Assembly: GCA_963749155.1 (NCBI GenBank)
Contig: CAVVLO010000001.1
Coordinates: 384,001-448,000 of the forward strand
DNA length: 64,000 bases
Reading direction: 5' to 3'
Source: an uncultured Armatimonadia bacterium
GTDB lineage: Bacteria > Armatimonadota > Zipacnadia > CAVVLO01
Under the pieces are notes generated by a model that worked only from the letters and a program-made list of their open reading frames with translations, was not told where the DNA came from and did not search any database. The position numbers were made by a program, and so were the translations under genes. Position 1 is the stretch's first letter, and each line of letters opens with the position of its first letter. Below, piece by piece: positions 5,614-54,344 of this stretch.

Positions 5614-6592
5614 CTACCCATACACCTTCTCGTTGACTGCCATCGCCAGGCGATACGAGGCCAGGGCATCGGCATAGGGGGAGCGGATAGGCGCCATCGA
5701 GCCTGTCTCCATCGCCTCGAAGAAGGCCAGCCACTCGACCTCAAAGCACTGGCTGTTCGGGGTGCCCTGGTAGCTCCACGGTTGCCCTGCAACCAGGCCC
5801 TGGGCCAGGTTGGCGAACATATCCACGTCCACGCTGCTGCGGTCGGTGATGATTGAGATACGACATTTCCACTGAGAGGCGCACCAGGAATGCCCGTGGC
5901 TCACCAGCGCGCCGTTCTCCATCGCCAGAGTCCAGCCGACCTTGTCCACCGTGTCGATGGCGTCGGTCAGGGGGAGCCTCTGCCGCAGCCCGAGCGCCGC
6001 GATCTGGACGGCGTCCGAGCCTGTGATATAGCGCGCCGCGTCGAGGTAGTGAACTCCCTGATCGCCGACCAGTCCGCCGGACTTGGCCAGGCTATAGGGA
6101 TTTGGATAGCCTGCGGCCATCTGGACATCCGCCATCGGCGATTCGTAGAGTATCTGCACGAGGGTCAGCTTGTCCCCTTGTACCGCCTGCATCGCCGCAT
6201 TGAGCGCCTGGTTGTAGCGACTCATAAAACCGACCGAATGGATAAGCCCCGACTCGTCCAGCAGCTTCAGGATGGCCTCGCCTGCCTCAACAGTGTGGCA
6301 GGGTGGCTTCTCCATCAGCACCGGGAGGCCTTTACTTCACGGCCAGCTCGATATATTCGAGTCGCGCATGGGCAGGCGTGAAGAGCGCAATGCAATCCGG
6401 TTTCACTTTGGACACCGCTTCGGCTGCATCAACAAAGATAGGTGCTTTGGGCGCCCATTTGGCAGCGAAAGCCTCGGCCCGCTGCTTGTCCAGGTCCACT
6501 AGTCCGACTACTTTGGCCTTGCCAGTTGTCTCGAGGGCCGCGCCATGGGAATGCGAGATGCCTCCCGAGCCGATTACGAGGACTTTCTTCAT
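5614..6592 (-). CDS. Gfo/Idh/MocA oxidoreductase; frameshifted near 6325
   Basis: VIGSGGIS Rossmann motif, EKP motif, VGFMSRY and GGLVGDQGVH; ORFs 6332..6592 plus 5614..6321. Confidence 0.85.
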
Positions 6593-6711
6593 CTGTAGAC
6601 TCCTCCAGTCAAGCGAAAAGCCGCCTCTCGGCAGCCTTTGAAGATACGCCTCTCGCAGGAGAAGCCCTGCCTGGAAGCGAAACAGGAACCAGAGTTTTGG
6701 AAGGTGATCCT

Positions 6712-8510
6712 ATGAAAGGTCTGATGCTGCTTGTTTTGCTCGGTCTCTGCCTCGCTGGCTATGCCCAACCGAACTGGCGCGTCTCGAGCGGCGACTGGCG
6801 CCTCTCTTCAGATACTCTTGCTTGCGATGATCCGGACAACCGGGGTCCTTTGGTTGGACTGCCAGGCGCAGCATACCGAGACTTCACAGCCGAGGTGAGT
6901 ATCCAGTTCCAGGCTGACCACGTCGGCGGGGGAGAGGGCTGGGCAGGCCTGCTTGTGCGAGGCCGCAATCCTGTCGCCTATGGAGTCTTCCACTCCGGCT
7001 ATCTGGCCTTGCTGCGCGCAAATGGCCGGCTAGAACTGGGTGGAGGCCTGGGCAAAGTAGAGACTGGCCTCGACCCCCTTACCGCTCCGGTGCGGCTGCG
7101 CGTCGAAGCCACAGGCGACTGGCTGCGCGTTTTCGCCGACGGCAAGCAGCTCATTGAAGCGACGGGCCAGCTCTATCCAGAGGGCGAAGTCGCCCTGGCC
7201 CTTTTCGGCGCCGAAGCCACCTTCAGTGATTTCCAATTGACCGGCCAATCAGTGCCAAAAGAGGAGTGGACCCCAGTGCAACCCATCCAGCCAGTCCCCG
7301 AAGCTGCCCCGCCCGTTACACCTCTGCCCCGCATCGCCACCAGGCTGCGCGAGGGCACCCTCGGAGAGTTCTGCGTGAAGGAGACCGGCGAGCGTTTCTT
7401 CCCCGAGGGCTACAACTACACCGTGCTGGCGAACAACTGGCATGCGACCTTCGATACCGATGTCTATGACCCGGCCAATATGGAAGCCGCTCTTGCCGCG
7501 ATGGAGGCGGCTGGCTCCAACTGCATACGCGTCTGGAGCTGGGGCAGGGCCACGCATGAGACCAGTTTCTGTGGCGCCCAGAGTGACCGCGGGCTGAATC
7601 CGCAATATATGGCCAACTATGTGGACTTCCTGCGCCGCTGCACCGCTCATCATATCTACGTCGTGGCGATGGTGGACGAGTATCCCCGCAATGCCTGGTA
7701 CGACTGGGTGGACAGGGAGAACACCGCCCCTGACGATGAGCTGACGGTGCGCGGCTACAACCGCCAGTATCTCACTAGCGGCCTCATCGCCGCCAAGGCC
7801 GAGGCCTTGGGCGATTTCATCACCTATATCAAGCAGGCCGACCCTAATCTGCTCTCAACCGTGCTTGCCTGGGCTTTCTGTAATGAGGCTTTCGTAGACG
7901 CCAAGCTTGGTCCCTTCGATCAGGAGGAGGGACTGGTAACCTGCGCCAACGGCAAGACTTACGATATGGCAGACTTCGACCAGCGGCAGGCTTGCTGGGA
8001 TGAGGGCATCGTCCACTGGGCCAATGCGCTGGACGCCGTGGTGAAGGAACTCGATCCCGAGGCGATGACTACCGTCGGGATGTGGACTTCCGATGCTCAG
8101 CGGCGGGCGCCATACAATGGGATAGACCCCACCTCTGGTGTTGTGCAGGACCAGCGTTTTTGCCCGCGGCCCTCGGTGCTGGCCGCGCCGGAGTGCAACA
8201 TCGACTTTCTGGATATCCATGTCTACCCCTGGCGCGGACCAGAGGCCGCACTTTTTGACGAGATTCCGCATGAGTGGACTGCCCTGAAGCAACTTGGCAA
8301 AACGGTGCTGGTCGGCGAGTATGGCGCCTTTACGCACCAGTCGCCCGAGCCGGGTCCGGCGATGCAGGTAGTGCTGGGGATACGGCAAGAATCACTGGCG
8401 CACGACTACGCGGGTTTCCTCTTCTGGACGTGGAACCTGTCCGGCCCCGGTTGCTGGGCTGGGGTGGACCCGGGCTGGGCAGAGTTCCTGAAAGAGCAGT
8501 TCCTCTTGAC
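6712..8510 (+). CDS. Secreted GH5-like glycoside hydrolase with N-terminal DUF1080-like beta-sandwich; end approximate
   Basis: Signal peptide MKGLMLLVLLGLCLAGYAQ; clan-A motifs GSNCIRVW, FCNE, DIHVYP, LVGEYG and FLFWTW. It has no in-frame stop and reads through a repeat-containing spacer into the next gene. Confidence 0.7.
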
Positions 8511-8589
8511 GCGTCCTCGTCTCTGTCCCCCACTAGAGGGGGTACAGGGGGGCCACCCCCTGTGCAGTTTGCCTTTGGAGGTTGCCTTG

Positions 8590-10353
8590 ATGCGGTTCTT
8601 CGCCCTTGCCTTGTTGCTCTGCGCCGCCTGGACTGCGGGCGCGGAGAATCTGACGGCTTCCCCGAGGCTATTCCAGCTTGGCGAGGGGTGGAGTGCTGCC
8701 GACGGCGCCTTGCAGTGTGATACTCAGGGCGATGCTTATGCCTGGGCCACTGGCGCTCCTTTATCTCCTGGTTGGAAGTTGCGGCTTGAAGCGACCATCG
8801 GCAAGCGCTACTCGGGAGAGGGCCAAAGCGCAGCGCTCAGCCTTGGGGTGGCGACAGAAGCCGCTCCGACCACGCCGGCGCTGCTCTTCAACGTCGAGAG
8901 CCGCACCGAGGGGAAGATAAACCTGACGGCTCAGTATCTCACCGAGGGCCAGTGGGTTCCTCTCTACGCCAGCGACTGGATTTCCTGCAAGGACGATCGC
9001 TTCACGCTGGAAGCCGAATACACGCCCGGCAACCGGTTCCTCGACCTGCGGCTGTGGAGCGGCAGCGGCTGGTACACGCACCTCCGCACTCGGCCCTTCC
9101 GCCAGGATTTGTTGAAGGCCTTGCGCTTCCCCGGAGCGCGCGTGTACGGGGGCGAGGCCCAGGTCGCGCTGCTCGAGCCGACCGAACTGCCCCAGCCCGC
9201 TGCGTGGCAGCCGCCAGCCGACCTGGTCAACTCGGCGCAGCGCGCAGGGCAAGACTTGCTTGCGGGCTACTGGGTAGGCGATGCCGTGACCGGTCACATC
9301 ATCGAGACCTATTATGGCTTCCGAAGGGAGGATGCCCCGCGGGACGATGTGCGCTGGCTGTGGGACAACGACCCTCGGGGTGGCATCTGGGAACGAGGTA
9401 CTCTGGTGTTCGCCCTTGCCGCTCTGTATGACGCCACCGGAGACGCCGATCTGCTCGCCCGCCTTAAGGCCGAATACGCCTACACTCGCGGTCGTTACAC
9501 CGCTGAAGAGATCGATTCCGCCCCCGGCACGACTATGATGGTTGGCTGCGACGATGTGGGCTGGGACGCCTGGTATTTCCTCACGCTATACCGGTATACG
9601 CAGGACCAGTGGGCTTTGGACCGCGCCCGCGCGCTGACAGAGGCCGCCTTCGCCCGGTGGGAGGACAGCGACCTCGGAGGGGGCCTCTGGTACAACGACC
9701 AGCGGCAGGCCAAGTCCACCTATCAGGCTGCGCTTTTGCTCTCGGCCCTCACCCTTTGGGAGCTGACGGGCGACGACCACTTCCTCGAATTGATGATGCC
9801 CGCCTACAACTGGACCGAGCTCAACTGCCTGCGCCCGGATGGCCTTTACTGGTGCGATTACGGCTGGGGCGGCCCGGTGGGGAAGGAGCGCCCGGGCGAT
9901 ATCCACGAGGCCGGCAGTGTCAGTTTCCTCGGCGGGAATATGATGATGGGCGTAGTGAACGCGCGCCTCTACCGAGCTACCGGCCAGCCAGAATATCTGG
10001 CTCGCGCGTTGCATTCGGTGGAGGCCATCAGCGCCCACGAGACAACCGAAGGGGTCTTGCTAAATGATCGCGATGCCTGGGCCAATGGCGCCTTCGCGCC
10101 CGAATGGGCTCGCGAAGTGCTGACCCTTCCTGGCTGCCCGGCGGAGGCTCGGGCGCTGCTTGTGCGGACAGGGGAAGTCATCGCCCAGCGCGCTCGCACG
10201 CTGGAGGGCCTCTACTCGCCTTGCTGGCTCACTCATCCCGCTGGGGAAGAGTGCCCCTGGCTCGCCGCCCAGACGACAGCCGGGCAGATAATGACTAGCT
10301 CCACGACGGCGACCTTCCTCATCGCCGCTACGCTGGGTACGTTACCGCACTAG
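8590..10353 (+). CDS. Secreted GH76-family glycoside hydrolase
   Basis: Own GGAGG RBS and signal peptide MRFFALALLLCAAWTAGA; CDDVGW (DD catalytic pair) and GGGLWY..K motifs. Confidence 0.75.
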   Translation: MRFFALALLLCAAWTAGAENLTASPRLFQLGEGWSAADGALQCDTQGDAYAWATGAPLSPGWKLRLEATIGKRYSGEGQSAALSLGVATEAAPTTPALLFNVESRTEGKINLTAQYLTEGQWVPLYASDWISCKDDRFTLEAEYTPGNRFLDLRLWSGSGWYTHLRTRPFRQDLLKALRFPGARVYGGEAQVALLEPTELPQPAAWQPPADLVNSAQRAGQDLLAGYWVGDAVTGHIIETYYGFRREDAPRDDVRWLWDNDPRGGIWERGTLVFALAALYDATGDADLLARLKAEYAYTRGRYTAEEIDSAPGTTMMVGCDDVGWDAWYFLTLYRYTQDQWALDRARALTEAAFARWEDSDLGGGLWYNDQRQAKSTYQAALLLSALTLWELTGDDHFLELMMPAYNWTELNCLRPDGLYWCDYGWGGPVGKERPGDIHEAGSVSFLGGNMMMGVVNARLYRATGQPEYLARALHSVEAISAHETTEGVLLNDRDAWANGAFAPEWAREVLTLPGCPAEARALLVRTGEVIAQRARTLEGLYSPCWLTHPAGEECPWLAAQTTAGQIMTSSTTATFLIAATLGTLPH

Positions 10354-10669: not shown

Positions 10670-10786
10670 ACACTTCCTTAACCCCCATCCCAAACCCCCT
10701 CCCACCCGGGGCTTCTAGCAACGCAAGAAGCGTGCCAGAAGGCCCTTATCCTGGGCAATTTTGGAATAGATTTACAAAGATTTTAC
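10670..10786 (-). ncRNA. Sigma-54 / G-tract cassette, copy 1 (candidate ncRNA)
   Basis: Minus strand: GTAAAATCTTTGTAAATCT box, TGGCACGCTTCTTGC (10737-10723), then CCCCGGGTGGGAGGGGGTTTGGGATGGG. Confidence 0.5.
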
Positions 10787-10937: not shown

Positions 10938-13130
10938 ATGAATCTGCCACAGATTGCCAAAGTGTCTCGTTGGAGGCTCCAGATGACCGCGCTTATTCTG
11001 ATTGCGGCCTTGTGCGCCGCGCTTGCCCTTACTACACAAGCTGCCCCCGTCCAGCCGAAAGGCGAAGTCGTGCTGAAGCCTTTCGACCTGCAAGGTGTGA
11101 CCCTTGGTGGCACCCTCCGCCGGCAGGTGGAAGAGGTATCGGAATACTACCTGCGCCTGGTGAATGATGACCTGCTGATGCCCTATCGCCTGCGAGCCGG
11201 CCTGCCCGCACCTGGCGCCGGTATGGGCGGCGTCTACGTCGGTCACAATCCCTTCCCGCAATATCTCTCCGGCCTGGCGCGCCTCTACGCCGTCACTGGC
11301 GATGAGCGTTGCCGGACCAAGGCTCTGATTTTGCTGGAAGGCTGGGCCGAGTGCCTCGAGCCGGATGGGTTCTTCTTCTCCGACCGCAATCCAGGCCTGT
11401 TGCATTATTACTATGACAAACACGTCGCTGCCCTGGTGGATATCTACCTCTACTGCCATGAACCTAAGGCTTTGGAATACCTTTCCCGCATCACCGACTG
11501 CGCCGAGAAGGAACTCAGCCGCGTGAAGCTCTATGCCAGCCCCACTGGCTTTGACGGAGGCGAATGGTATACCCTCGCCGAGAATCTCTATCGCGCCTAC
11601 CTGGCCACCGGAGACACCCGCTATCGCGATTTCGCAAAGGTCTGGGAGTATCGCGACTACTGGAACTGCTTCGAATCTGACCCTGGTAAGGTGCTCTTCG
11701 AGGTGCTGGCCGAGAAGCACGGCTGGTATCACGCCTACAGTCACGTCAACACCTTCAGCAGTCTGGCTGCGGCTTATCTGACCGAGGGCAATCCAGCCGA
11801 CCTGGCTCTGCTCGAGAAGGCTTGCGACTATGTGCGCGCCACCCAGTGCTATTCGACCGGCGGCTACGGGCCTAATGAGAACCTGCTCCAACACCCCACC
11901 CTGATGCAGTTGCTTGCTGAAACCCATCGTCACTTCGAAACCCAGTGCGGCTCCTGGGCTGGCTTCAAGCTGTCGCGCTACCTGATGGCTTTCACGGGCG
12001 AGGCGCGCTTCGGCGACTGGATCGAGCTATTGTTAATCAACGGCATCGGCGCTTCTATCCCGATGAGCGGCGATGGCCGCGTCTTCTATTACTCTGACTA
12101 TAATCCAGGCGGCGCCGCCAAGCACAACATCGATGCTCCCTGGGCCTGCTGCACTGGCACCCGGCCTCAGGCGGTCGCCGAATACGCCAATCTCATCTAC
12201 TTCCACACCGAGAACGCCCTCTTCGTGAATCTCTACGCCGAGTCCACCCTCCACTGGGAACGCCCTGGCGGCGCTGTCGAGGTCGCGCAGAAGACAGTAT
12301 TCCCCGAAATCGAGCAGACGGTGCTGACCCTTGCACTCGATACTCCGGCAGAATTCGCTATCAACTTCCGCCTGCCCGGCTGGCTGGCTGGCCCTGTGCA
12401 GCTAACTGTGAACGGTGAGCAGTGTTCGCCTGAATTCACGGAGGATGGCTGGGCCAGGGTCGAACGCACCTGGCAGAGCGGTGATGTCCTTAGTCTCAAG
12501 CTGCCGATGAAGCTTTGGGTTAGCTACTACGATACGCCCAACACTTATCCAGCCGCCCTGATGTATGGTCCGGTGGCTCTGGCTGTACGCGGGCAGGAGG
12601 GCAATCCCGCCTCGCTTATTCCGCTGGACAACCTGGAGGGCGCGCTTGAACCCTCGCCAGGTGAGCCACTTACCTGGCGCGTTATCGCCAATCCTTCCGT
12701 GCTGGTGCGGCCTTTTTACGCCTTCAAGGAGGGAGAACGCTATTTCCTCTATCTCGATCCGGCCGTCATCGCTGCCTGGGCAAGCTATCGTTCTGCGCGA
12801 TTCACGGGCGAGTGGAAGGACTATGGCGACTGGATGGCCTGCTTTGTGCCTGGTTCTTATGCAGAATATGACTTTAAGGGAACTGGGTTGCGGCTCCATT
12901 ACACGCTGTTCGATGATTGCGGCCAGGTTGAAGTGAGCGTCGACGGACAGGTTGTTGCAACCTTCGATGAATATGGCCCGGTGCGGGGGGAGAAGGCTTA
13001 CTTCGACCTGACCGGCCTTTCCGATGAGGCTCACACGCTGCGCCTGACCGTGACGGGGAAGAAGGCAGACGCTTCCAAGGGCAACTATGCGAATATCGGC
13101 GCCTTCGAGCGCCTCGACCCGCCGAGCTAG
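10938..13130 (+). CDS. GH127/GH146 beta-L-arabinofuranosidase-like protein with C-terminal beta-sandwich
   Basis: HAYSH, ETQC and WACCTGT motifs, LFVNLY, and ALMYGPVAL. Confidence 0.85.
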   Translation: MNLPQIAKVSRWRLQMTALILIAALCAALALTTQAAPVQPKGEVVLKPFDLQGVTLGGTLRRQVEEVSEYYLRLVNDDLLMPYRLRAGLPAPGAGMGGVYVGHNPFPQYLSGLARLYAVTGDERCRTKALILLEGWAECLEPDGFFFSDRNPGLLHYYYDKHVAALVDIYLYCHEPKALEYLSRITDCAEKELSRVKLYASPTGFDGGEWYTLAENLYRAYLATGDTRYRDFAKVWEYRDYWNCFESDPGKVLFEVLAEKHGWYHAYSHVNTFSSLAAAYLTEGNPADLALLEKACDYVRATQCYSTGGYGPNENLLQHPTLMQLLAETHRHFETQCGSWAGFKLSRYLMAFTGEARFGDWIELLLINGIGASIPMSGDGRVFYYSDYNPGGAAKHNIDAPWACCTGTRPQAVAEYANLIYFHTENALFVNLYAESTLHWERPGGAVEVAQKTVFPEIEQTVLTLALDTPAEFAINFRLPGWLAGPVQLTVNGEQCSPEFTEDGWARVERTWQSGDVLSLKLPMKLWVSYYDTPNTYPAALMYGPVALAVRGQEGNPASLIPLDNLEGALEPSPGEPLTWRVIANPSVLVRPFYAFKEGERYFLYLDPAVIAAWASYRSARFTGEWKDYGDWMACFVPGSYAEYDFKGTGLRLHYTLFDDCGQVEVSVDGQVVATFDEYGPVRGEKAYFDLTGLSDEAHTLRLTVTGKKADASKGNYANIGAFERLDPPS

Positions 13131-29910: not shown

Positions 29911-29984
29911 TTATAAATGTACTTTTTTCTTTCCAGAGGGTAAGCTTCGGCTTGCCCTCTTCTTTTGGAGGAGTATCACTACCG

Positions 29985-32639
29985 ATGGCCAACCAAAACC
30001 GATTCTTGCTCTCGCTCCTGCTCGTTGTTTTGCTGCCTTGCTTTGCTTATCCCGCCTCTGGAGACGATGGTGCTTTGTCTGCTTACAAGGGTCGCTATTT
30101 CGCTGGCGCTGGCGATACCCAGTATCTGGAACTCCTCGATATGTGCGCGCGCGTATTCTGGCCCGACCCCGAATATCAGAACCTCTCGATGCTCTACTCC
30201 CCCACCTGGAACGGCTTTGTAGAGGGCCCAACCTGGGGCGCCTGGTGGATCCAGAATAGCTACGGGCCGACTTATTGCGAATTGCCTTTCCTCACCGAGC
30301 CGTATACCACTTTCCTCCAGAACGCGCAGGACCTCTGGTTCGACCAGATGGGCGATGGCCTTCGTAAGGGCGCCTTCGACTGGGTCGCCCCCGACGGGTG
30401 CCTTTGCGATGCCGCCGCACCCGGCTGGATTGTCTACAGGCAAGGCGATGGCCGCACTGATATCCACGATTGGGCCGTCGAATTCACCGCCGCCGGTATC
30501 GTGATGCAGGCGGAGTTGCTGTTAATCAGCCGGGATGTTGAGGCTATCAACCACTATCTGCCGCTGCTGCGCCGGTCGGCCGACTTCCTCGAGTCGCGCC
30601 GAGATTCGACTAATAACCTCTTCCTCGCTGGCCCAGCCGGCAACCTGCTCGCGCCTAGCTATGCCGGCTACCACAAGCCTGATGATACCTATGGGATGGC
30701 TTATCTCGCCGGCCTCTCCATCACCACAATCGCCGCTCTCGACCGCCTGATAGAACTGGAGAAGCTCGCCGGCGATCCCGACCATGTCGCCACCTGTGAG
30801 CGCAGGCGCAACCTCGCTCGCCAGGGTCTGTCCGAGCTGGAGACGGACGAGGGCTATTTCATAAAGTCGCTCGATCCTGATGGCACGCGCCACGGGGTGT
30901 ATGGCGCCGAGAAGTATGGCTATTTCGAGGCCGTCTGCAACCATGACGCCATCGCCTTCCGTGTGGTGGATGACGCTCAGTCGCGCCGCATCTACGACAA
31001 GATTGCCTCGATCCCCGGCCTGCGTCCGGTCGACCTCATCATCACCAACTACCCCTCGCTGGACGATATGTATATGCCTGCAGAGGGCCTGTGGGGCTTC
31101 GGCACCTGGGTAAATGGCGGTCACTGGACGACCTGCGAGGCCCGGATGATGCTTGCCTACTTCCGCCTGGGCCAGTACGCGGACGCTCAGGCCTCGATGG
31201 AATACATCCGCACCCTTTACGAGACCTTCCGCACCGACAATCCGCTGGTCGAGTTTGGCGCCAAGCCCTATCAGCCCAGCCTGCCCATCAACTGTGTCTA
31301 TGACACCTGGGGCGCCCCTGCGGGGATGCTTCGCGGCCTTTTCGAGTATCTCTACTCCGCCGAAGGACTCACTCTGGTGCCGCATATCCCGACCGGAATA
31401 ACGCAGCTAGAGCAGCGTTTCCCCGTCCGGCTTGGGGACAAGCGCCTGTTTCTCTCCACTCGCGGGCAAGGCGAGATAACCGGCGTCCAGGTCAACGGCG
31501 CCCCGTGGAAGGACTTCGATGCTACCTCGGTGCGCCTTCCGGCTGATTCCCTACCCGCAAAAGCCCAGGTGGTAATACTGCTCGGGGGCGCTGAGGCTGG
31601 ACTTGCCAAGGCAGTCCTGCCAGGCTCCGAACCTGTCCTCGTGCCTGCGCCTGAAGATGACTTCTGGGACCTCACAGGCTACCTGCCTTTCGCCTCCGGC
31701 AACCTGCTGCCTCTGCGTCTGGGCGCGGATTCGAGCGGAGCCTGCCGCCTGCAAGGCTTGATGAAGCGCGCGCTTGTCTACGAGCGCGAACTGACGCCCG
31801 AGGAAGTCGCCACCCTCGCCGATCCAGCCTCTGAAGTGCCTGCAGACGGTTTGTTGCTTCACTTCGACCTGGGCGATTATGCCGATGGCGCCGTGCCTAA
31901 CCGGGCCTCAGCGGCTTTCTTCGCCGAAGTGCGCGGCGAGGTTGAACTGGTTGATACCCCCTTCGGCAAGGCCTTGCGTCTTGGTCAGGCAGGTTATCTC
32001 GAGGTGCCCTTCGACCCCCGTCTCAACCTGGCTGGCCCCTATACCCTAGAAGCCTGGGTCTGCCCGGAGCAGTTTGCCGAGGGCGGCAGCCGCCTCATCG
32101 ACAAGGTCACCGCTGGCGTTGATGACGCTTATCTCTTCGACACCTACCCGAGCGCCAGCCTGCGTCTGATAACCGAGCGCGGCCATCTGCACTTCGAGGC
32201 AGGCCTGCAACTGAATACCTGGGTTCACCTGGCGGCGACTTACAATCCCGAAGGAGAATTGCGTCTCTATGTTAACGGCCAGCTTGTCGCTTCAAGCCCC
32301 GCTGCTCACGTTAACCTGACCACTCCGGTCCCCTGGCCCAAGGTCGGCGCCTTCTACCAACGTCTAGTAGGAGAAGGGCTTTCCGATACCTACGAGGCAG
32401 CTCACGCCCGGTTGCTACTGGACTATGTGGAAGCTATGCATCAAAGAGAGAGCCTGCGCGAGGCTGGCATTCTTGCGCCTCTGCCGCCAGAATCGCAGCT
32501 TGCCGCCGACAAGAGCTATGTGGATGCCGCCAACCGGCTTGTCCAGGGCCTGGCCCAGCATATGCAGGCGCTCGAAAGCTCCAAAAATCCGAGAGAAGCG
32601 CAGCTTGCTGCCTTCTGGCGCGAAGCCCTGGCGGACTAG
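29985..32639 (+). CDS. Secreted (alpha/alpha)6-barrel glycoside hydrolase-like protein with LamG domain
   Basis: Signal peptide; six-hairpin-like region (WVNGGHW); LamG motif YTLEAWV...WVHLAATY....LRLYVNG. Confidence 0.65.
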   Translation: MANQNRFLLSLLLVVLLPCFAYPASGDDGALSAYKGRYFAGAGDTQYLELLDMCARVFWPDPEYQNLSMLYSPTWNGFVEGPTWGAWWIQNSYGPTYCELPFLTEPYTTFLQNAQDLWFDQMGDGLRKGAFDWVAPDGCLCDAAAPGWIVYRQGDGRTDIHDWAVEFTAAGIVMQAELLLISRDVEAINHYLPLLRRSADFLESRRDSTNNLFLAGPAGNLLAPSYAGYHKPDDTYGMAYLAGLSITTIAALDRLIELEKLAGDPDHVATCERRRNLARQGLSELETDEGYFIKSLDPDGTRHGVYGAEKYGYFEAVCNHDAIAFRVVDDAQSRRIYDKIASIPGLRPVDLIITNYPSLDDMYMPAEGLWGFGTWVNGGHWTTCEARMMLAYFRLGQYADAQASMEYIRTLYETFRTDNPLVEFGAKPYQPSLPINCVYDTWGAPAGMLRGLFEYLYSAEGLTLVPHIPTGITQLEQRFPVRLGDKRLFLSTRGQGEITGVQVNGAPWKDFDATSVRLPADSLPAKAQVVILLGGAEAGLAKAVLPGSEPVLVPAPEDDFWDLTGYLPFASGNLLPLRLGADSSGACRLQGLMKRALVYERELTPEEVATLADPASEVPADGLLLHFDLGDYADGAVPNRASAAFFAEVRGEVELVDTPFGKALRLGQAGYLEVPFDPRLNLAGPYTLEAWVCPEQFAEGGSRLIDKVTAGVDDAYLFDTYPSASLRLITERGHLHFEAGLQLNTWVHLAATYNPEGELRLYVNGQLVASSPAAHVNLTTPVPWPKVGAFYQRLVGEGLSDTYEAAHARLLLDYVEAMHQRESLREAGILAPLPPESQLAADKSYVDAANRLVQGLAQHMQALESSKNPREAQLAAFWREALAD

Positions 32640-32870: not shown

Positions 32871-32989
32871 GAAACACTTTGGAAACCCCCATCCCAAACC
32901 CCCTCCCACCCGGGGCTTCTAGCAACACAAGAAGCGTGCCAAAAGGCGGCTCAGCGTGCCAGTTGGCGAAAGATTTACAAAAGTTTTAC
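32871..32989 (-). ncRNA. Sigma-54 / G-tract cassette, copy 2 (-12 element degenerate)
   Basis: Minus strand: GTAAAACTTTTGTAAATCT box, TGGCACGCTTCTTGT (32941-32927) and the same G-tract. Confidence 0.45.
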
Positions 32990-33134: not shown

Positions 33135-33824
33135 ATGGAGCGCTCACAACTAGTAAAACCTGGTCTTTTCTCGGTCGGTGTAGCTGCTGATAGCAGGCGC
33201 GGAGAGTTCGATTTCGGCAATGAATCGCTGGTGCTGCAGGGGATGCGCCCCGATTTCGTCTTCATCGGCGACAGTATCACCCATCTCTGGGAGCTGCAGG
33301 CCTACTTTGGCGGCACTGGGAAGGTGCTCATCAACCGCGGAATCGGTGGAGATGTCTCCACTTTCGTACGCAAGCGCTTCGAGGCCGATGTAATCCAGCT
33401 TCAGCCGAAGTGCGTCGTGATGAAGATCGGCACGAACGACCTGGGCTGGGCGCTCGAGCAGCTGAGTCCGGCCATCTCGGAGGTCATCTTCGAGAACGAT
33501 TCGGCGATGCTGGACAGGGCGAAGGCGGCGGGTATTACGATGGCGCTCTGCTCCATCCTGCCTGTCTGGGGTCCGAGCTGGTACCCTTCGGATGAGTTCT
33601 CAAAGCTCAAGAACGCCCAAATCGTGGCGCTCAACGCGAGGCTTAAGCAACTCGCCGAGGAGAAAGGTGCAATCTGGGTGGACTATCATAGTCAGATGGT
33701 AGGGGAGGACGGCCAACTGCGGCCTGAACTCGCTGATGATGGCGTACATCCGCACCACTTCGGCTACGCCATAATGGCCGATGTGCTGCGCAAGACGTTC
33801 TCCGAGCATAGTGTGACCATATAA
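33135..33824 (+). CDS. SGNH/GDSL esterase
   Basis: FIGDSIT, NRGIGG, IGTND and DGVHP blocks. Confidence 0.92.
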   Translation: MERSQLVKPGLFSVGVAADSRRGEFDFGNESLVLQGMRPDFVFIGDSITHLWELQAYFGGTGKVLINRGIGGDVSTFVRKRFEADVIQLQPKCVVMKIGTNDLGWALEQLSPAISEVIFENDSAMLDRAKAAGITMALCSILPVWGPSWYPSDEFSKLKNAQIVALNARLKQLAEEKGAIWVDYHSQMVGEDGQLRPELADDGVHPHHFGYAIMADVLRKTFSEHSVTI

Positions 33825-44969: not shown

Positions 44970-45823
44970 GTGTTTCGCGAACTCGTTCCCGAAACCCAGC
45001 AAAGATTGAAAAAATACGATGGTGCAGGGGTTCTGCCCCTGCACCCGCCTTCTTACTTGCGTGTTTCGGGAGTCTTGCTCCCGAAACCTGGGCTCGCTGC
45101 ACTGATCCTTGCCGCGAAGCGGCGGGTCTGGAGCCTCTGAGCTTGCACCTGAGGTGCCTTTGCCTTATGTAGGGGCGGGTCTGAGATCTCCGCCCAGCCC
45201 GAGGCCGTTGGAGCCGAGGCTCCTGAGCAGGCGGCTGCCAGGCCTTGCCTTATGTAGGGGCGGGTTGAGACCGCCCAGCCCGAGGCCCTGAGGCTCTCGA
45301 AGGGCCAATCCAATTACCTTGATGCAAGTGAACCGGCAAAGAATCGATGGTGCAGGGGTTCTACCCCTGCACCCGCCTTCTTACTCACGTGTTTCGGGAG
45401 TCTTTGCTCCCGAAACCTTGGAGCCTGGCTTGCACCTGACGCCTTTGCCTTATGTAGGGGCGGGTCTGAGACCCGCCCAGCCCGAGGCCCTGAGGCTCTC
45501 GAAGGGCCAATCCAATTACCTTGATGCAAGTGAACCGGCAAAGAATCGATGGTGCAGGGGTTCTACCCCTGCACCCGCCTTCTTACTCACGTGTTTCGGG
45601 AGTCTTTGCTCCCGAAACCTTGGAGCTTGGCTTGCACCTGATGCCTTTGCCTTATGTAGGGGCGGGTCTGAGACCCGCCCAGCCCGAGGCCCTGAGGCTC
45701 TCGAAGGGCCAATCCAATTACCTTGATGCAAGTGAACCGGCAAAGAATCGATGGTGCAGGGGTTCTACCCCTGCACCCGCCTTCTTACTCACGTGTTTCG
45801 GGAGTCTTTGCTCCCGAAACCTT
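44970..45823 (+). repeat. Mosaic tandem array 1 (BIME-like), 202-bp unit, about 2.8 near-identical copies plus one degenerate copy
   Basis: Unit phase points at 45281, 45483 and 45685; each unit contains hairpins E, C, A and B. Confidence 0.92.
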
Positions 45824-45855
45824 GCAACCTTGGAGCTCTTTCCAGCCAATCCATG

Positions 45856-45985
45856 GTAAAACCTTTGTAAATCTTTCGCGTAGTCGACCCTGAAACGCTC
45901 GGTCTGGCACGCTTCTTGCATAATATAACCCCCGGGTGGGAGGGGGTTTGGGATGGGATTCCCGGGGGTTGCGAAAGTGTTTCGG
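45856..45985 (+). ncRNA. Sigma-54 / G-tract cassette, copy 3
   Basis: GTAAAACCTTTGTAAATCT (45856), TGGCACGCTTCTTGCA (45905-45920), and a stem AACCCCCGGG/CCCGGGGGTT enclosing the G-tracts. Confidence 0.55.
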
Positions 45986-46063: not shown

Positions 46064-46891
46064 ATGCCCGAACCTGACGCTGGCCAGTCTCAATATGCTT
46101 TTCCCAGGCTCAGCCTCGCCCCCTTTGTTCACGAATACGCACCCAAAGAGACCGTTCGCGTGGACTATACGAGCCTCGTAGATGGCTTCGCCGACTGGGC
46201 CTTGCTCTGTCCTCCTCGCCACGAGTCGCTTTGGCTTGTTTTCGTCCACGGTCATGGCTCAGCGGGCGATCAGCTCTTCGTGCGCGAGGATATCCGGGAG
46301 CGTCTCCTCTTCCCGGCGCTCGAACGTGGCCTCGGACTGCTGATGGTCAACCTGCGCGGCAACGCCTGGATGGGCCCGGCTGCGGCTGAAGACCTGCTCG
46401 CTCTGATCAAATTCATCCGCGGCGATTATGGGGCAAAGAAGCTGATTTTCCCAAGTGGCTCGATGGGCGCAAGCAGTAATCTCATCTTCGCCCGCATGTA
46501 TCCTGAGGAAGTCGCCGGGGTCGTGGCCCTTTGTCCGGCTACTGACCTTGCCTCCTATTGGGCCTGGTGTAAGGAAAAAGCTTCGCCGATTACACTCGAG
46601 ATAGCCAGTGCAATCCAGGAGTCATACGGAGGCGTCCCTTCCGAGCGGCCAGCTCTTTATGAAGTCCACTCCGCGCTGTTTGGGGCGGACCGGCTCAGGA
46701 TGCCGCTCTTCCTCGCCCATGGTACCGCCGATGACATCATCCCTGTGGAACAGTCTCGGCGCCTTGCAGAGCGGCTTGCCACCAAGCCAACGTTCACTTA
46801 TGTAGAACAACCTGGCGGCCACCATGACACGCCACTAGCCCTGGCCACCGAGGCCCTGGACCAGGTCCTCTCCCAGGTCGAAACGGGCTGA
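46064..46891 (+). CDS. Alpha/beta hydrolase (S9-like esterase/peptidase)
   Basis: FVHGHGS, GSMGA nucleophile, HGTADDIIP and GGHH. Confidence 0.85.
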   Translation: MPEPDAGQSQYAFPRLSLAPFVHEYAPKETVRVDYTSLVDGFADWALLCPPRHESLWLVFVHGHGSAGDQLFVREDIRERLLFPALERGLGLLMVNLRGNAWMGPAAAEDLLALIKFIRGDYGAKKLIFPSGSMGASSNLIFARMYPEEVAGVVALCPATDLASYWAWCKEKASPITLEIASAIQESYGGVPSERPALYEVHSALFGADRLRMPLFLAHGTADDIIPVEQSRRLAERLATKPTFTYVEQPGGHHDTPLALATEALDQVLSQVETG

Positions 46892-46917: not shown

Positions 46918-47485
46918 CCCCTGCACCCGCCTTCCGACTCACGTGTTTCGGGAGTCTTTGCTCCCGAAACCTTGGAGCCTGGCTTGCACCTGACGCCTTT
47001 GCCTTATGTAGGGGCGGGTCTGAGACCCGCCCAGCCCGAGGCGCCCCAGGCGCCGAGGCCCTGAGGCTCTCGAAGGGCCTTATTCATATCCCCGCCGAGG
47101 CCGTCAGGCCGCCTTGTCGAAGGACCCTGTTCATATCTCTACCGAGGCCCTGAGGCTCTCGAAGGGCCAATCCAATTACCTTGATGCAAGTGAACCGGCA
47201 AGGAATCGATGGTGCAGGGGTTCTACCCCTGCACCCGCCTTCCGACTGACGTGTTTCGGGAGTCTTTGCTCCCGAAACCTTGGAGCCTGGCTTGCACCTG
47301 ACGCCTTTGCCTTATGTAGGGGCGGGTCTGAGACCCGCCCAGCCCGAGGCGCCCCAGGCGCCGAGGCCCTGAGGCTCTCGAAGGGCCTTATTCATATCCC
47401 CGCCGAGGCCATAGGCCGCCTTGTCGAAGGACCCTGTTCATATCTCTACCGAGGTCGTGAGGCTCGCGAAGGGCCAATCCAATAA
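46918..47485 (+). repeat. Mosaic tandem array 2, 308-bp unit, about 1.8 copies
   Basis: Family A at 46943 and 47251, family B at 47008 and 47316, and several family E motifs. Confidence 0.9.
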
Positions 47486-50048: not shown

Positions 50049-50680
50049 GTGTTTCGGGAGTCTTTGCTCCCGAAACCTTGGAACTCGCTTGCACCAAACG
50101 TCTTTGCCTTATGTAGGGGCGGGTCTGAGACCCGCCCAGCCCGAGGCCATAAGGCCGAGGCCCTGAGGCTCAGGCTGCCAGGCCGCTCTCGAAGGGCCAA
50201 TCCAATAACCTTGCCGCAAGCGTCCTGGCAAGAAATCGATGGTGCAGGGGTTCTACCCCTGCACCCGCCTTCTTACTCACGTGTTTCGGGAGTCTTTGCT
50301 CCCGAAACCCTGGAGCTCGCTTGCACCTAACGCCTTTGCCTTATGTAGGGGCGGGTCTGAGACCCGCCCAGCCCGAGGCCATCAGGCCGAGGCCTGAGGC
50401 TGTCGAAGGACCATGTTCATATCTCCACCGAGGTCCTGAGGCTCTCGAAGGGCCAACCCAATAACCTTGCCGCAAGCGTCCTGGCAAGAAATCGATGGTG
50501 CAGGGGTTCTACCCCTGCACCCGCCTTCTTACTCACGTGTTTCGGGAGTCTTTGCTCCCGAAACCCGGAGCTCGCTTGCACCTGACGCCTTTGCCTTATG
50601 TAGGGGCGGGTCTGAGACCCGCCCAGCTTTAACCCAACCAGGCTAAGTGTTTCGGAGTCTTTGCTCCCGAAACCTTGGAC
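50049..50680 (+). repeat. Mosaic tandem array 3 (units of about 232 and 256 bp)
   Basis: Family A at 50049, 50281, 50537 and 50647; family B at 50113, 50345 and 50600. Confidence 0.9.
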
Positions 50681-50707: not shown

Positions 50708-50846
50708 GTAAAACCTTTGTAAATCTTTCGCGTAGACACCCCCGAAACACCCGTTCTGGCATGCTTCTTGCATAATATAACCCCCGGGTGGGAGGGGGTT
50801 TGGGATGGGATTCCCGGGGGTTGCGAAAGTGTTGCGAAAGTGTTTC
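50708..50846 (+). ncRNA. Sigma-54 / G-tract cassette, copy 4
   Basis: Box at 50708, TGGCATGCTTCTTGCA (50757-50772), and the same stem and G-tracts as copy 3. Confidence 0.55.
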
Positions 50847-50987: not shown

Positions 50988-52013
50988 TCAGCCTTTCGGA
51001 GGGCGCTCCATCAGTTCCTGGATGATCTCGGCAATCGCCTCCGAGCTTGCTACCTGTTCGAGGCATATCTGTTTTGAGGTCGCATCCTCAATCCACTTGT
51101 GCTCGCCAGTTGCTGCATCGATCTCTACGCGCCAGCCGCGCCTCTCTTTCCACAGGTCGCCTGGCCCCTTCACTGCATAGAGGGCTGCGCACTGGTCCCA
51201 GCTCGAACGCAGATAGGGCGCTCTTAAGGTATAGATCTCATAAGCCAGCCGCACTGGGTTGGCCGCCGGGCCTTCGGTCACCAGCTTGCCTCCGGTCAGG
51301 ATATCCTCCCCCGAGGGCGACACCACGAGTTCTACCGGCCAGTTGTTGACGACCCTCACTGCCGAAGCCAGGTCCGCAGCCCAGTTGAAGGTGTCTTTTC
51401 CCCTTGGCCAGACCCCCATCGCCATCGAGACAAGCCTCTTCACCTTTCGCTGGACCAGTTCTTCACCGCTAAGAGGACTAAATATATCCGGCTGAGAGTC
51501 TAGTAGCCCAGCGATTCCAGACAGTTGGCCTACCGCGCAGATCGTGATGGAGCCATCCTCCGCCCTGGCTAGCAACTTGCGATACTGGGTAACTGTGTTC
51601 GGGATAGGCGCGCCTTCTACGGTCCGAGTGTGAGGGAAGTTTTTCGCTACCGCCTCGACATAGTCGTGGCCGTGTTCAGCTACGTAAGCCGCCGCGTTAC
51701 GATAAAGCTGATACTCGGGCGCCGTCTCGTAATTTGCCCACATCATACCGCCGATGGGCAGCTCGCCTCGCCCATACCAGGTGTTGATGGCGTCGATGCA
51801 GTGGGGCCCGAAGTCCGTCGGCGCCGAGTGAAGCGCGCCAATCAGGTTGACCAGCCCTTCATCCGCCAGCGCGTGCAGTACCGCAAGTGCTCCGCAATCA
51901 TCCACATCAGAGTGCATATCAGTATCGAATATCAGGTCCACAGGCGCCCTCCCACTAACTGCCACCGAGGTAATCCCCAGCATCAGGACAAGTCCAATTA
52001 TCAGATAACGCAT
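50988..52013 (-). CDS. Secreted nucleoside hydrolase-family protein
   Basis: IFDTDMHSDVDD, VGQLS and SSWD; N-terminal signal peptide. Confidence 0.85.
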   Translation of the reverse strand: MRYLIIGLVLMLGITSVAVSGRAPVDLIFDTDMHSDVDDCGALAVLHALADEGLVNLIGALHSAPTDFGPHCIDAINTWYGRGELPIGGMMWANYETAPEYQLYRNAAAYVAEHGHDYVEAVAKNFPHTRTVEGAPIPNTVTQYRKLLARAEDGSITICAVGQLSGIAGLLDSQPDIFSPLSGEELVQRKVKRLVSMAMGVWPRGKDTFNWAADLASAVRVVNNWPVELVVSPSGEDILTGGKLVTEGPAANPVRLAYEIYTLRAPYLRSSWDQCAALYAVKGPGDLWKERRGWRVEIDAATGEHKWIEDATSKQICLEQVASSEAIAEIIQELMERPPKG

Positions 52014-52211
52014 TTTTCTCTCACTCCAGCCAAGGGTGAACTGATTCGTGCTTTTGCCCTTGATACCTGTTGAAGTCTGCCTGTAAAATCTCTCTCTCTC
52101 GCCTCGCTCCCAAGCCTTGTTGGTCCTCTGGCAGGAGACAAAACTCTCGCGCCGAAGCAATAATTAGTCTCATATGTGACCTTTCAGATTCCTGTAATTG
52201 GAGTTTCCCTG

Positions 52212-52907
52212 ATGACCCTGCCTGCGCCAGTGGCGCCGCTCAAAGACACTAACGAACTGCGCGAAGAGATAATCGCGGCGGCGCGTTTCTGGACCGAACG
52301 CGACCTTACTATTGGCACCTGGGGCAATATCTCGGTCCGCGTCGAGGAAGGCTTGCTGGTTACGCCCTCGGCGATGGATTATGCCACTCTAGTTCCCGAC
52401 GACCTGGTGGTCGTTTCCTGGGAAGGCGTCCGTATCAAAGGCCACCGGCTCGCTTCTTCCGAAACCCAGACCCACCGGCTGCTTCTGCTCGCGCGGCCCG
52501 ATATGGTCGCATCAGTCCATGCGCATGCCCCCTATGCCTGTATCTGCTCCTCGGCGCACAGGACAATCCCTGTGGTAATGGAAGATATGGCCCAAAGCCT
52601 GGGTGGCGAGGTGCGTTGCTCGGTCTACGTGGCCGGTGGTCGCCATATGGAGCTTGCCGAAGCTGCCGTCGCCGCGCTCGGGCATCATTCCCAGGCGGTG
52701 CTCCTCGCGAATCATGGCCCCTTCGTGCTGGGCGCCACCCTCCGGGCCGCCGCAGTTGGGATCCAGGTGCTCGAGAAAGCTGCTATGGCTTTTGTGCTTG
52801 GAGGCCTCATAGGAGGCGCGGTGCCTATCCCCCCCGAACTCGTCGAGGAAGAACACGATCGCTTCACAAATAAATACGGCAGACCTGAAGACAAATCTAC
52901 CGGCTAG
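52212..52907 (+). CDS. Class II aldolase/adducin-family protein (FucA-like)
   Basis: GTWGNISVR, VTPS, ASSE..TH, VHAH and LLANHG. Confidence 0.9.
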   Translation: MTLPAPVAPLKDTNELREEIIAAARFWTERDLTIGTWGNISVRVEEGLLVTPSAMDYATLVPDDLVVVSWEGVRIKGHRLASSETQTHRLLLLARPDMVASVHAHAPYACICSSAHRTIPVVMEDMAQSLGGEVRCSVYVAGGRHMELAEAAVAALGHHSQAVLLANHGPFVLGATLRAAAVGIQVLEKAAMAFVLGGLIGGAVPIPPELVEEEHDRFTNKYGRPEDKSTG

Positions 52908-53000: not shown

Positions 53001-54344
53001 ATGAGCTGCACTAGACCAACAATGAAGCATGACCCACTTATTTGCACAATGCAGGAAGGCATCAACTACGAAGACTATGTGGTAGCAACCTATATTGTCG
53101 CAAGCGGAATGCGCGCCGATGTACTTTCCAAAGCAGTAGCGCTGGCTGTAGAGCAATCGACAGGCTCCTGGACCTCGGTACCTGGAGAGACCGAAGAAGT
53201 AAAGAGAAGGTCGGTTGGCCGGGTAATCGGCGTCTACGGAGTGCCCGACTACGAGCTTATCGCGACGATGCCCACTGACCAGAAGAAGAGAGATTTCGTC
53301 GTGCGCGTTGCGTATCCGGCCCTCAACTTCTACAACAACATCCCGCTGGTCCTCACAACGGTAATCGGCAATATCTCCAGTATGCCTTTCCTGAAGCTGG
53401 TGGACCTGGAATTTCCCCAGAAGTTCGTGAACGATTTCAAAGGCCCCAAGTTTGGCGTTCAGGGGCTAAGAGATATACTGGGTGTTCAATCGCGTCCCCT
53501 CCTCAACAATATGATCAAACCTTGCACAGGCATCACCCCCGAAGAGGGCGCCGCTCTGCTTTATGAGGCCGCCAGGGGCGGGGTCGACATTGTCAAGGAC
53601 GATGAGGTCATCGGTAGCCCCGCCTTCTCTCCACTGGCCAAGCGAGTCGAGGCCTATATGGCGGCTGCTGCAAAGGCCGACCAGGAAAAGGGCGAGAAGA
53701 CGCTCTACACGGTCAATATCACCGACGAGGTTAACAAGCTAGTCGATAATGCCAAACTCGCTATCGACGCCGGCGCCAACGCCCTGATGGTCAGCGTCTA
53801 CGGGATTGGCCTTTCTGGGCTCAGGCAACTGGCCGAGCATCCCGACATCAACGTGCCGATTATGGCCCATTCCTGCTATGGCGGAGTTCAATTCGCTCAG
53901 GCTTATTCGGGAGTCAGCACTTCCGTGCTGGCCAAGCTGGTCCGTATGTGCGGGGCCGATATGTATCTGAACGTAGCCCCCTCGGCCAAGTTCAATGCGC
54001 TTGAAGAGAAGTTCCTGCGCGTCCAGCAGATTCTGGGCACCAGCTTCTTCCACATCAAGCCCGCGATGGCTCTGATAGGCGGAGGCGTCTCCCCAGGGAT
54101 GGTCCCCTACCTGATCAACGTTGCCGGTCTGGACACCCTGCTTGGCGCAGGTGCCGGCATCCACGGCCACCCAATGGGCGCGAAAGCTGGCGCCATCGCC
54201 ATGCGTAAGGCCATTGATGCAACGCTCGAGGGCGTTTCGCTCGAGCAAGCCGCGCTCGCAAGCCCCGAGCTTAAAGTTGCTCTCGAGGTCTGGGGCGTAT
54301 ACGGCGGCGAGGAATACGACCGGCTGTTCGATCTCGAGATCTAA
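53001..54344 (+). CDS. RuBisCO-like protein (form IV)
   Basis: EQSTGSW, GPKFG, IKPCTG, GGVDIVKDDE and GAGIHGHPMG; lacks the HR motif of true RuBisCO (AHS here). Confidence 0.92.
   Translation: MSCTRPTMKHDPLICTMQEGINYEDYVVATYIVASGMRADVLSKAVALAVEQSTGSWTSVPGETEEVKRRSVGRVIGVYGVPDYELIATMPTDQKKRDFVVRVAYPALNFYNNIPLVLTTVIGNISSMPFLKLVDLEFPQKFVNDFKGPKFGVQGLRDILGVQSRPLLNNMIKPCTGITPEEGAALLYEAARGGVDIVKDDEVIGSPAFSPLAKRVEAYMAAAAKADQEKGEKTLYTVNITDEVNKLVDNAKLAIDAGANALMVSVYGIGLSGLRQLAEHPDINVPIMAHSCYGGVQFAQAYSGVSTSVLAKLVRMCGADMYLNVAPSAKFNALEEKFLRVQQILGTSFFHIKPAMALIGGGVSPGMVPYLINVAGLDTLLGAGAGIHGHPMGAKAGAIAMRKAIDATLEGVSLEQAALASPELKVALEVWGVYGGEEYDRLFDLEI

Follow-up and report, generated by a model that had tools for sequence, protein, structure and literature searches.

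Promoters of the sigma-54 type require an enhancer-binding protein and cannot open without this ATPase activator. Among regulatory RNAs, the Qrr sRNAs of Vibrio are multicopy, sigma-54-dependent and stand-alone, end in terminators and require Hfq, while the sponges of the Rsm/Csr systems (RsmY/Z, CsrB) are G-rich RNAs with many looped GGA motifs that antagonise CsrA. What is known of bacterial G-quadruplexes (G4s) is mostly statistical and does not come from defined regulons; a very stable parallel G4 is formed by the promoter element of human c-MYC. Two published systems provide further points of comparison. Nijveen, Matus-Garcia and van Passel (2012, PMC3575422) describe reused, or 'putative mobile', promoters, in which similar promoter sequences are found before non-homologous genes of one genome, and Lee et al. 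(2020, PMC7341879) report that a G4 motif placed beyond the start site, on the non-template strand, raised the output of T7 transcription in vitro via R-loops.

The cassettes presented here come from a sediment bacterium whose metagenome-type genome comprises 4.17 Mb in 7 contigs (59% G+C). Four of them lie in the window, that is, the whole 64,000-nucleotide stretch of DNA that was analysed (contig C1, 384001-448000). Judged by their sequence, we read them as sigma-54-type promoter cassettes carrying a lineage-specific, probably G4-forming element that would act in cis and mark a carbohydrate-degradation sub-regulon, a reading which we hold with slightly less than even confidence. From 5' to 3', the cassette consists of an upstream box, GTAAA-N6-GTAAATCTTTCGC, a variable spacer of about 24 to 25 nt, a -24/-12 element of the form TGGCACG-N4-TTGY and, after an AT-rich stretch of 10 to 12 nt, the G-box, CCCCGGGNGGGNGGGGGNNNGGGAT. 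The layout of the latter can be written as CCCC-GGG-N-GGG-N-GGGGG-NNN-GGG-AT-GG.

Copy 3 (45856-45957, + strand) illustrates this organization. Its box occupies 45856-45874 and is followed by the variable spacer, the -24/-12 element (45905-45919), 10 AT-rich nucleotides and the G-box (45930-45957); after the G-box, a CCCGGGGG run extends to 45969 and can pair with the 5' C-run in folds computed by ViennaRNA with its G4 term. The gene in sense to this copy (46064-46891, +) begins 134 nt downstream of the G-box start and encodes a 275-aa alpha/beta hydrolase or esterase (Hydrolase_4, Abhydrolase_1, BD-FAE). The remaining three copies face the 3' ends of convergent genes. For copy 4 (50708-50809, +; box 50708-50726, -24/-12 element with TGGCAT 50757-50771, G-box 50782-50809) this is a 390-aa gene at 50988-52160 (-). 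Copy 2 (32888-32989, -; box 32971-32989, -24/-12 element 32927-32941, G-box 32888-32915) faces the gene for an 895-aa Laminin_G_3 protein (29952-32639, +) and is divergent from a GDSL lipase gene (33135-33824, +). Copy 1 (10684-10786, -; box 10768-10786, -24/-12 element 10723-10737, G-box 10684-10711) faces a GH76-domain gene (6442-10353, +) and is divergent from a GH127 gene (10938-13130, +).

These places and gene orientations agree with an earlier note on this DNA, and all three blocks of the cassette were recovered at each of the four sites. Exactly four instances of the 28-mer CCCCGGGTGGGAGGGGGTTTGGGATGGG are present in the window, and none in any of 100 shuffles; the -24/-12 string TGGCAYGCTTCTTGY also occurs four times, a count reached by 0 of 100 shuffles (mean 0.49), as does the upstream box GTAAAAYYTTTGTAAATCT, for which the expectation is 0. 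Alignment of the window copies bears out the divergence of the spacer between box and promoter, the TTGT of copy 2 and the threefold TGGGA of copies 3 and 4. The interval from TTGY to the G-box, put by the note at about 9 nt, measures 10 to 11 nt up to the CCCC run. Its statement that all four copies adjoin hairpin repeats stands for three of them: copies 3 and 4 have GTTTCGG/CCGAAAC repeats in the 300 nt upstream and copy 1 has a half-site downstream, and a search of 300 nt around copy 2 found none. A 202-bp tandem repeat (45245-45824; 2.9 copies, 98% identity) composed of hairpin modules immediately precedes copy 3; it is a neighbouring feature outside the conserved cassette. Hairpin repeats were also considered as a part of the cassette and rejected, being directly upstream in only 6 of the 17 copies of the genome. 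Three metatranscriptome runs from the same study were almost devoid of this genome's sampled words and gave two short pieces, both of them on hairpin repeats and neither on a cassette.

Genome-wide, there are 17 copies of the cassette and one decayed copy; all the evidence comes from paralogues within one metagenome-type genome. A 25-mer core gave 15 matches at up to 3 mismatches and none with a reversed control; the copy set was defined by permitting up to 5 free substitutions, with mismatches placed anywhere, which gave 18 matches, 17 of them with the full cassette. A profile built from 16 copies recovered the same 17 at 62 to 91 bits and added the decayed copy (C3:53125-53219), which lies before a gene with a signal-peptide-like start. 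Each of the 17 G-boxes found with a degenerate pattern has a -24/-12 element no more than 45 nt upstream, and the G-box never occurs without the promoter. The reverse does not hold, as the genome contains 34 TGGCA[CT]G-N4-TTG[CT] sites, 16 with a G-box and 18 without.

In the promoter block, TGGC is found in 17 of 17 copies, ACG in 16 and TTG in 16 to 17, the final C of TTGY in 13 (T in 4). Because the four bases between the -24 and -12 elements are kept in only 10 to 12 copies and the flanks in 9 to 15, the positions read by sigma-54 are better conserved than their surroundings, a comparison on which the earlier note had staked its promoter claim beforehand. Within the G-box, all seven positions other than G or C vary, in contrast to 3 of the 20 G/C positions; one of these three is a C/G swap at the border of C-run and G-run (4 copies), and the other two are each found in a single diverged copy. 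The five main G-box variants differ exactly at the loop positions. Since the substitutions avoid the G-tracts, selection appears to act on the G-box itself.

Two departures from the common layout are of interest. Three copies, all from one region of contig C3, are without the AT-rich stretch, and their G-box begins 1 to 3 nt after TTGC; the G-box of the other 14 begins at the predicted +1, and that of these three about 9 nt further upstream. The copy at C1:95294 has only three G3 tracts. In ten copies of the main variant the G-box is directly followed by GGGG and then TT to TTTTT, a weak hairpin-plus-U feature. In pairwise BLAST among the copies, homology tends to begin at -75 or -26 and to stop between +26 and +33.

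The machinery expected for such promoters is present in part. A single rpoN ORF of 468 aa, on contig C1, carries the Sigma54_AID, CBD and DBD domains, which answers in the affirmative one of two gene checks proposed by the earlier note, and perfect TGGCAC-N5-TTGC sites number 38 genome-wide, where the reversed pattern has 4. The nearest relative encodes an RpoN homologue of 63% identity. Together with the near-invariant elements and the variable N4, the gene sustains the -24/-12 assignment at the level of sequence, and the cassettes are very probably real sigma-54-type promoters. They share with canonical sigma-54 promoters the TGGCACG-N4-TTGC consensus, the three-domain rpoN and a conserved upstream site. 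ORFs following 14 sites without a G-box include a response-regulator/kinase hybrid, an OmpR-type regulator, FliM, a Wza-like polysaccharide exporter, an M14 peptidase and AdoHcy hydrolase; several of these are classic sigma-54 targets, and promoters before FliM, two-component genes and a polysaccharide exporter represent another likeness to the canonical system.

Three features set this system apart from canonical sigma-54 promoters. The G-box, an invariant G-tract element of 27 nt, abuts the start site; the spacing between the upstream box and the -24 element is fixed and, at about 24 nt, unusually short; and the assembly yielded no gene for an AAA+ enhancer-binding protein. The second of the two gene checks came out negative by three routes: a PF00158 search of the genome returned only two matches (38 and 33 bits), both Clp-type ATPases, no GAFTGA motif occurs in a fitting context, and tblastn with the NtrC-type protein of a relative found receiver domains only. 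Of 40 genomes of the same class, 33 have rpoN and an enhancer-binding protein together and 7 lack both; in comparison with them, the present genome, with rpoN alone, is the only discordant one. Loss of the activator gene in a gap of the 7-contig assembly is a simple explanation. The continued conservation of the upstream box argues that something still binds there.

Other promoters offer a guide as to what that may be. Some of those without a G-box in this genome have, equally far upstream, a comparable A/T-rich ...TTTTCGC(C/G) element, and the succession of box, spacer and -24/-12 element, again without G-box, is found in 8 of 9 genomes sampled from one genus of another family in the same phylum. 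By a profile search of 150 phylum genomes, these box-bearing genomes have 2 to 10 sites each, and the four that were checked encode exactly one enhancer-binding protein apiece. Because the layout recurs in other sigma-54 promoters and in another family, the box is probably the common site of the single activator typical of the phylum, or else of an architectural protein. It follows that the upstream box is not specific to the cassette, and that the new part in this genome is the G-box. An ECF-type promoter within the upstream box was also entertained and rejected, no conserved -10 partner being present.

What the cassettes are connected to is best seen across the whole genome. Ten of the 17 copies lie 124 to 352 nt before an intact sense ORF, so the ratio of the window, in which three of four copies face a convergent gene, is unrepresentative. 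The products of the sense genes are an alpha/beta hydrolase, a BD-FAE esterase, a GH3 enzyme, an alpha-L-fucosidase-like and a pectate-lyase-like protein, ThuA followed by a GFO oxidoreductase, and four proteins without an assigned family; several have, by eye, signal-peptide-like starts, and scanning the unannotated ones against NCBIfam gave no further identification. Another copy lies within a 708-bp inverted duplication (94.8% identity) on contig C2 and leads into the truncated start of a neighbouring gene, five are convergent orphans and one is unclear. Pfam families of esterases, glycosidases and sugar utilisation are represented in 6 of the 10 ORFs after G-box copies versus 0 of the 14 after sites without a G-box, for which a rough Fisher p is about 0.002, the copies being non-independent and the ORF calls crude. 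It is likely that the cassettes are mainly promoters or leaders rather than genes for small RNAs; orphan copies may give non-coding or antisense transcripts.

The part of the predicted transcript that the copies have in common is short. It amounts to only about 27 to 33 nt, with a single conserved GGA (16 of 17 copies) and a threefold TGGGA in 5 of 17, and no terminator-like site follows any of the four window copies on its own strand. The sole CsrA gene is part of a fliW-csrA pair beside a flagellin-like gene, and the antagonist of fliW-linked CsrA is the FliW protein; no Hfq gene was found in the genome. A search of Rfam gave no matches at the gathering threshold, in keeping with the earlier note's view that no such family has been described. 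At E of up to 10 it returned none around copy 3 and, around copy 1, seven chance-level matches (5 to 16 bits versus gathering thresholds of 34 to 70), two of which overlap the G-box. Two other readings of this region were tried and set aside: a leader peptide starting from a GTG inside the G-box, of which only about seven codons would be shared and whose start is destroyed by the T8A variant, and a minus-strand hairpin with T-run in copies 3 and 4 as a terminator of the convergent gene, which is seen in those two copies only.

The proposal that the G-box fits the G4 pattern, also made in the earlier note, is well borne out by the enlarged set: at least four G3 tracts with loops of 1 to 3 nt are present in 16 of 17 copies, and variation is nearly confined to the non-G positions. 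This occurs in a genome otherwise depleted of such motifs, which number 169 against 421 to 440 in three block shuffles; 16 of its 27 short-loop G4 motifs lie in cassettes. When the G4 term is included, ViennaRNA predicts that all 17 copies fold more stably by 2 to 19 kcal/mol, mostly as a three-layer G4, around which in many copies the 5' C-run pairs with a later G-run. Two single-nucleotide loops of the G-box resemble those of very stable parallel G4s such as that of the c-MYC promoter. Function via a G4 is a reasonable possibility, one that we consider somewhat less probable than its opposite. Conservation of the G-tracts only would fit a G4 and, equally, a protein that reads G-tracts.

The three short-spaced copies help to define where a G4 would act. 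Their predicted start lies inside the G-box, and the RNA made from it would be missing the C-run and the first G-tract. As DNA, the motif is intact in all three and spans about -5 to +19, with the bubble included. Because the start falls inside the G-box in these 3 of 17 copies, a role at the level of DNA, or a co-transcriptional one on the non-template strand, is favoured. The motifs of Lee et al. (PMC7341879), as there described, are likewise on the non-template strand and within the first 30 or so transcribed nucleotides; they differ in belonging to a T7 in vitro system and eukaryotic examples, in contrast to the dispersed bacterial family presented here. A literature search found no dispersed, sequence-conserved bacterial G4 family tied to one sigma factor. 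Articles on sigma-54 and G-quadruplex promoters contained no such element, by their titles and abstract openings; a search for sigma-54 promoter motifs of Verrucomicrobia glycoside hydrolases found none, and that for rpoN and enhancer-binding proteins returned standard regulon papers only.

The sequences searched outside this genome contain no second example. The exact cassette pattern is absent from 40 class relatives, and the profile gave nothing convincing in 78 class genomes (two matches, at E 0.005 and 0.009) and no full cassette in 150 phylum genomes. A pattern combining the promoter with the C-run and G-run matched 8 of 400 phylum genomes, at one site each, versus 4 matches for the reversed control; among the 8 sites, only that of genome L234 precedes a G4-like stretch. 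Scanning public genome contigs returned at least 121 stretches, mostly with Actinomycetes labels; the loci inspected are chance G-rich sequences, and among the matches listed none of those inspected has a -24/-12 element upstream. Public metagenome contigs yielded one match to promoter plus G-box, a homopolymer artefact, and plasmid and phage collections yielded none. Among the sequences searched, in which the nearest relatives are at class level only, the cassette is private to this genome.

The alternative that survives best retains the promoter and interprets the G-box as an operator in duplex DNA, bound from +1 to +27 by a sequence-specific repressor or activator that would give the carbohydrate sub-regulon a control of its own in addition to the shared sigma-54 machinery, with no quadruplex involved. 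Overlap with the predicted start is the usual place for an operator, and the strict coupling to the promoter (17 of 17) would be expected, as would the difference in gene class between promoters with and without a G-box. The shift of about 9 nt in three copies approximates one turn of the helix and would be better tolerated by a DNA site than by an RNA element, and in these same copies a C-run upstream of the predicted start is nevertheless conserved. Against this, the element is asymmetric and, at 27 bp, tolerates change at its non-G positions and not in its G-tracts, as a G4 would lead one to expect and as is unusual for base-specific contacts of a protein. No regulator gene adjoins the copies among the 105 ORFs scanned, and an operator that is G4-shaped by chance would be odd in a genome otherwise depleted of G4s. 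We consider the operator unlikely, if not to be neglected.

A second alternative, akin to the mobile promoter module raised in the earlier note, regards the cassette as a selfish or passively copied mobile promoter, or a MITE-like repeat, in which the G-box hitch-hikes with no regulatory role. The distribution of the copies before non-homologous genes and in orphan positions, the fairly sharp limits of the unit (-75 and +26) and recent segmental copying, as seen in the inverted duplication on C2 and in a pair on the 60-kb contig C6, all speak for it, and groups of reused promoters are on record (PMC3575422). As in the definition given in that paper, highly similar sequences, here a near-identical promoter, stand before non-homologous genes, in this case 10 intact genes of different families. 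In contrast to the reused promoters as presented there, conservation is in blocks, with substitutions only where neither sigma-54 nor a G4 needs the base, and the copies are grouped before genes of a single functional class. The hallmarks of a MITE or insertion sequence are missing as well: there are no terminal inverted repeats at the -75 and +26 ends, no uniform identity and no transposase among the 105 neighbouring ORFs, nor is there a plasmid or phage match. Block conservation with diverged spacers is unlike a recently transposed element, the avoidance of the G-tracts argues for selection on the G-box itself, and the copies are enriched before carbohydrate-active genes. Mobility without function is an improbable account of the family.

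The weakest part of the earlier interpretation is its reading of the cassettes as a non-coding RNA family. In the form considered here, each would be the gene for a short sigma-54-driven RNA whose G-rich 5' end would serve as a trans-acting seed or as a sponge, for instance of CsrA; despite five copies with no sense gene downstream, ten with a weak hairpin-plus-U feature, a CsrA gene in the genome and the precedent of multicopy sigma-54-dependent sRNAs such as Qrr, this is very doubtful because 10 of 17 copies read into ORFs, the window copies have no terminators on their own strand, just 27 to 33 transcribed nucleotides and one GGA are shared, CsrA is linked to fliW and Hfq was not found, and neither Rfam nor the other genomes searched offered a relative. 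As with Qrr, one genome contains several paralogues built on a shared conserved core, every one of them equipped with a sigma-54 promoter and an upstream site; the differences are the entry into ORFs, the lack of terminators in the window, Hfq not having been found and a shared part confined to about the first 27 nt. With the Rsm/Csr sponges the cassettes have in common a G-rich RNA containing GGA and a CsrA in the same genome, but they have neither an array of GGA loops nor, in the window, a terminator, and the CsrA is of the fliW-linked type.

To return to the reading that we prefer, in which the G-box is a cis-acting mark on sigma-54-type promoters, the following course of events can be proposed. 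An activator or architectural protein would occupy the upstream box, from about -75 to -50 and at a fixed distance from the promoter, and sigma-54 RNA polymerase would start about 12 nt after the GC of TTGC and transcribe into the downstream gene. The G-box may then act in cis as a G4-forming element, either in the displaced non-template DNA or in the first 30 nt of the nascent RNA, and would thereby determine how strongly, or under which conditions, a sub-regulon of secreted carbohydrate-degrading enzymes is expressed. Copies facing the 3' ends of genes would be by-products of promoter duplication, possibly giving rise to antisense or non-coding transcripts.

A bolder version of this scheme, which we offer as a long shot, is that of a dispersed natural G4 regulon, in which a non-template G4, located in the melting region or directly beyond it, helps to open the sigma-54 promoter, or to hold it open, via a G4/R-loop. 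Such opening might respond to K+, supercoiling or a G4-binding factor, and it would partly or wholly replace the enhancer-binding ATPase that is apparently absent from the genome.

Were the G-box no more than an operator or a repeat that hitch-hikes, the family would be a tidy case of promoter reuse, of modest significance. On the preferred reading, the 17 natural paralogues, which combine a near-consensus sigma-54 promoter with a conserved G4 motif, represent a built-in mutagenesis series in their loops, with the ordinary sigma-54 promoters of the same cell as internal controls. With them it can be tested how a promoter-proximal G4 affects sigma-54 transcription, how a sigma-54 regulon runs in a genome without a recognisable enhancer-binding protein and whether polysaccharide-degrading enzymes of an uncultured sediment lineage are under an extra layer of control.

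The gene for RpoN lies at C1:910320-911726 (L180:6321-7727) of G000, the genome under study, although a gene for an enhancer-binding protein, as recognized by the Sigma54_activat domain, was not found in the assembly of that genome. Across the class, 33 of the 41 genomes counted carry both rpoN and an enhancer-binding protein gene, seven carry neither, and only G000 has rpoN by itself; its genome holds about 35-40 good -24/-12 sites. The encoded RpoN (L180:6321-7724) contains a zinc-ribbon-like insertion, CPxCG...CxxC, at residues about 55-75, directly C-terminal to region I. This insertion is common to most of 11 aligned homologues, selected from at least 120 matches, and the source names of some homologues among the matches listed are Chloroflexi or Armatimonadota MAGs. 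The insertion is absent from six RpoN proteins encoded by genomes of the same class.

Beyond the 17 copies of the cassette (upstream box, variable spacer, sigma-54-type -24/-12 element and G-box) in G000, an 18th, decayed copy is present at C3:53125-53219 (L201:1500-1595), in which the -24 element is damaged and the G-box-like sequence reads CCAGGTGGGGGGGGATTGGGAGGGGATTT; the gene downstream has a signal-peptide-like start. A segment of about 708 bp is duplicated in inverted orientation, with 94.8% identity between C2:1354429 (-) and C2:1359630 (+), and spans the cassette together with the first 40 or so codons of a secreted-protein gene, and in one copy the gene start ends early at a stop. 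Canonical G4 motifs number 169 in the whole genome versus 421-440 in block-shuffled sequence, and are thus about 2.5-fold rarer.

Upstream of copy 3 lies a 202-bp tandem repeat (window 45245-45824; 2.9 copies, 98% identity), and shorter hairpin-repeat arrays occupy 47051-47168, 47359-47475 and about 50049-50650. All are composed of REP-like hairpins of several types, GTTTCGGGAG...CTCCCGAAAC being one, and GTTTCGG/CCGAAAC half-sites occur 611 times genome-wide. On the minus strand, a terminator-like hairpin with a T-run is predicted at 45929-45945 and 50781-50797, in copies 3 and 4 only, where it is the complement of the G-box start and the AT-rich spacer. Just past the gene faced by copy 4 stand a class II aldolase gene (52176-52907, +) and, downstream of it, a RuBisCO large-chain-like gene (53001-54344, +).

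In G082, a genome from another family of the phylum, CCCGGGG and three more G3 tracts come 9 nt after a single TGGCACGATTCTTGC site (L234 / L210), in the position that the G-box has in the cassette; this resemblance, found at one locus only, may be due to chance. A multi-copy promoter architecture occurs in g51, a genus of another family in the same phylum (loci L202-L209 and L211-L213), with 2-10 copies per genome: AAWTTTTCGAAAATTTTTCGCCC and TGGYACGAWTCTTGC, in this order, are separated by about 23 nt that contain CCCC-AAA-CCCC. Each of the four g51 genomes checked has exactly one enhancer-binding protein gene, and one site of this architecture adjoins such a gene.
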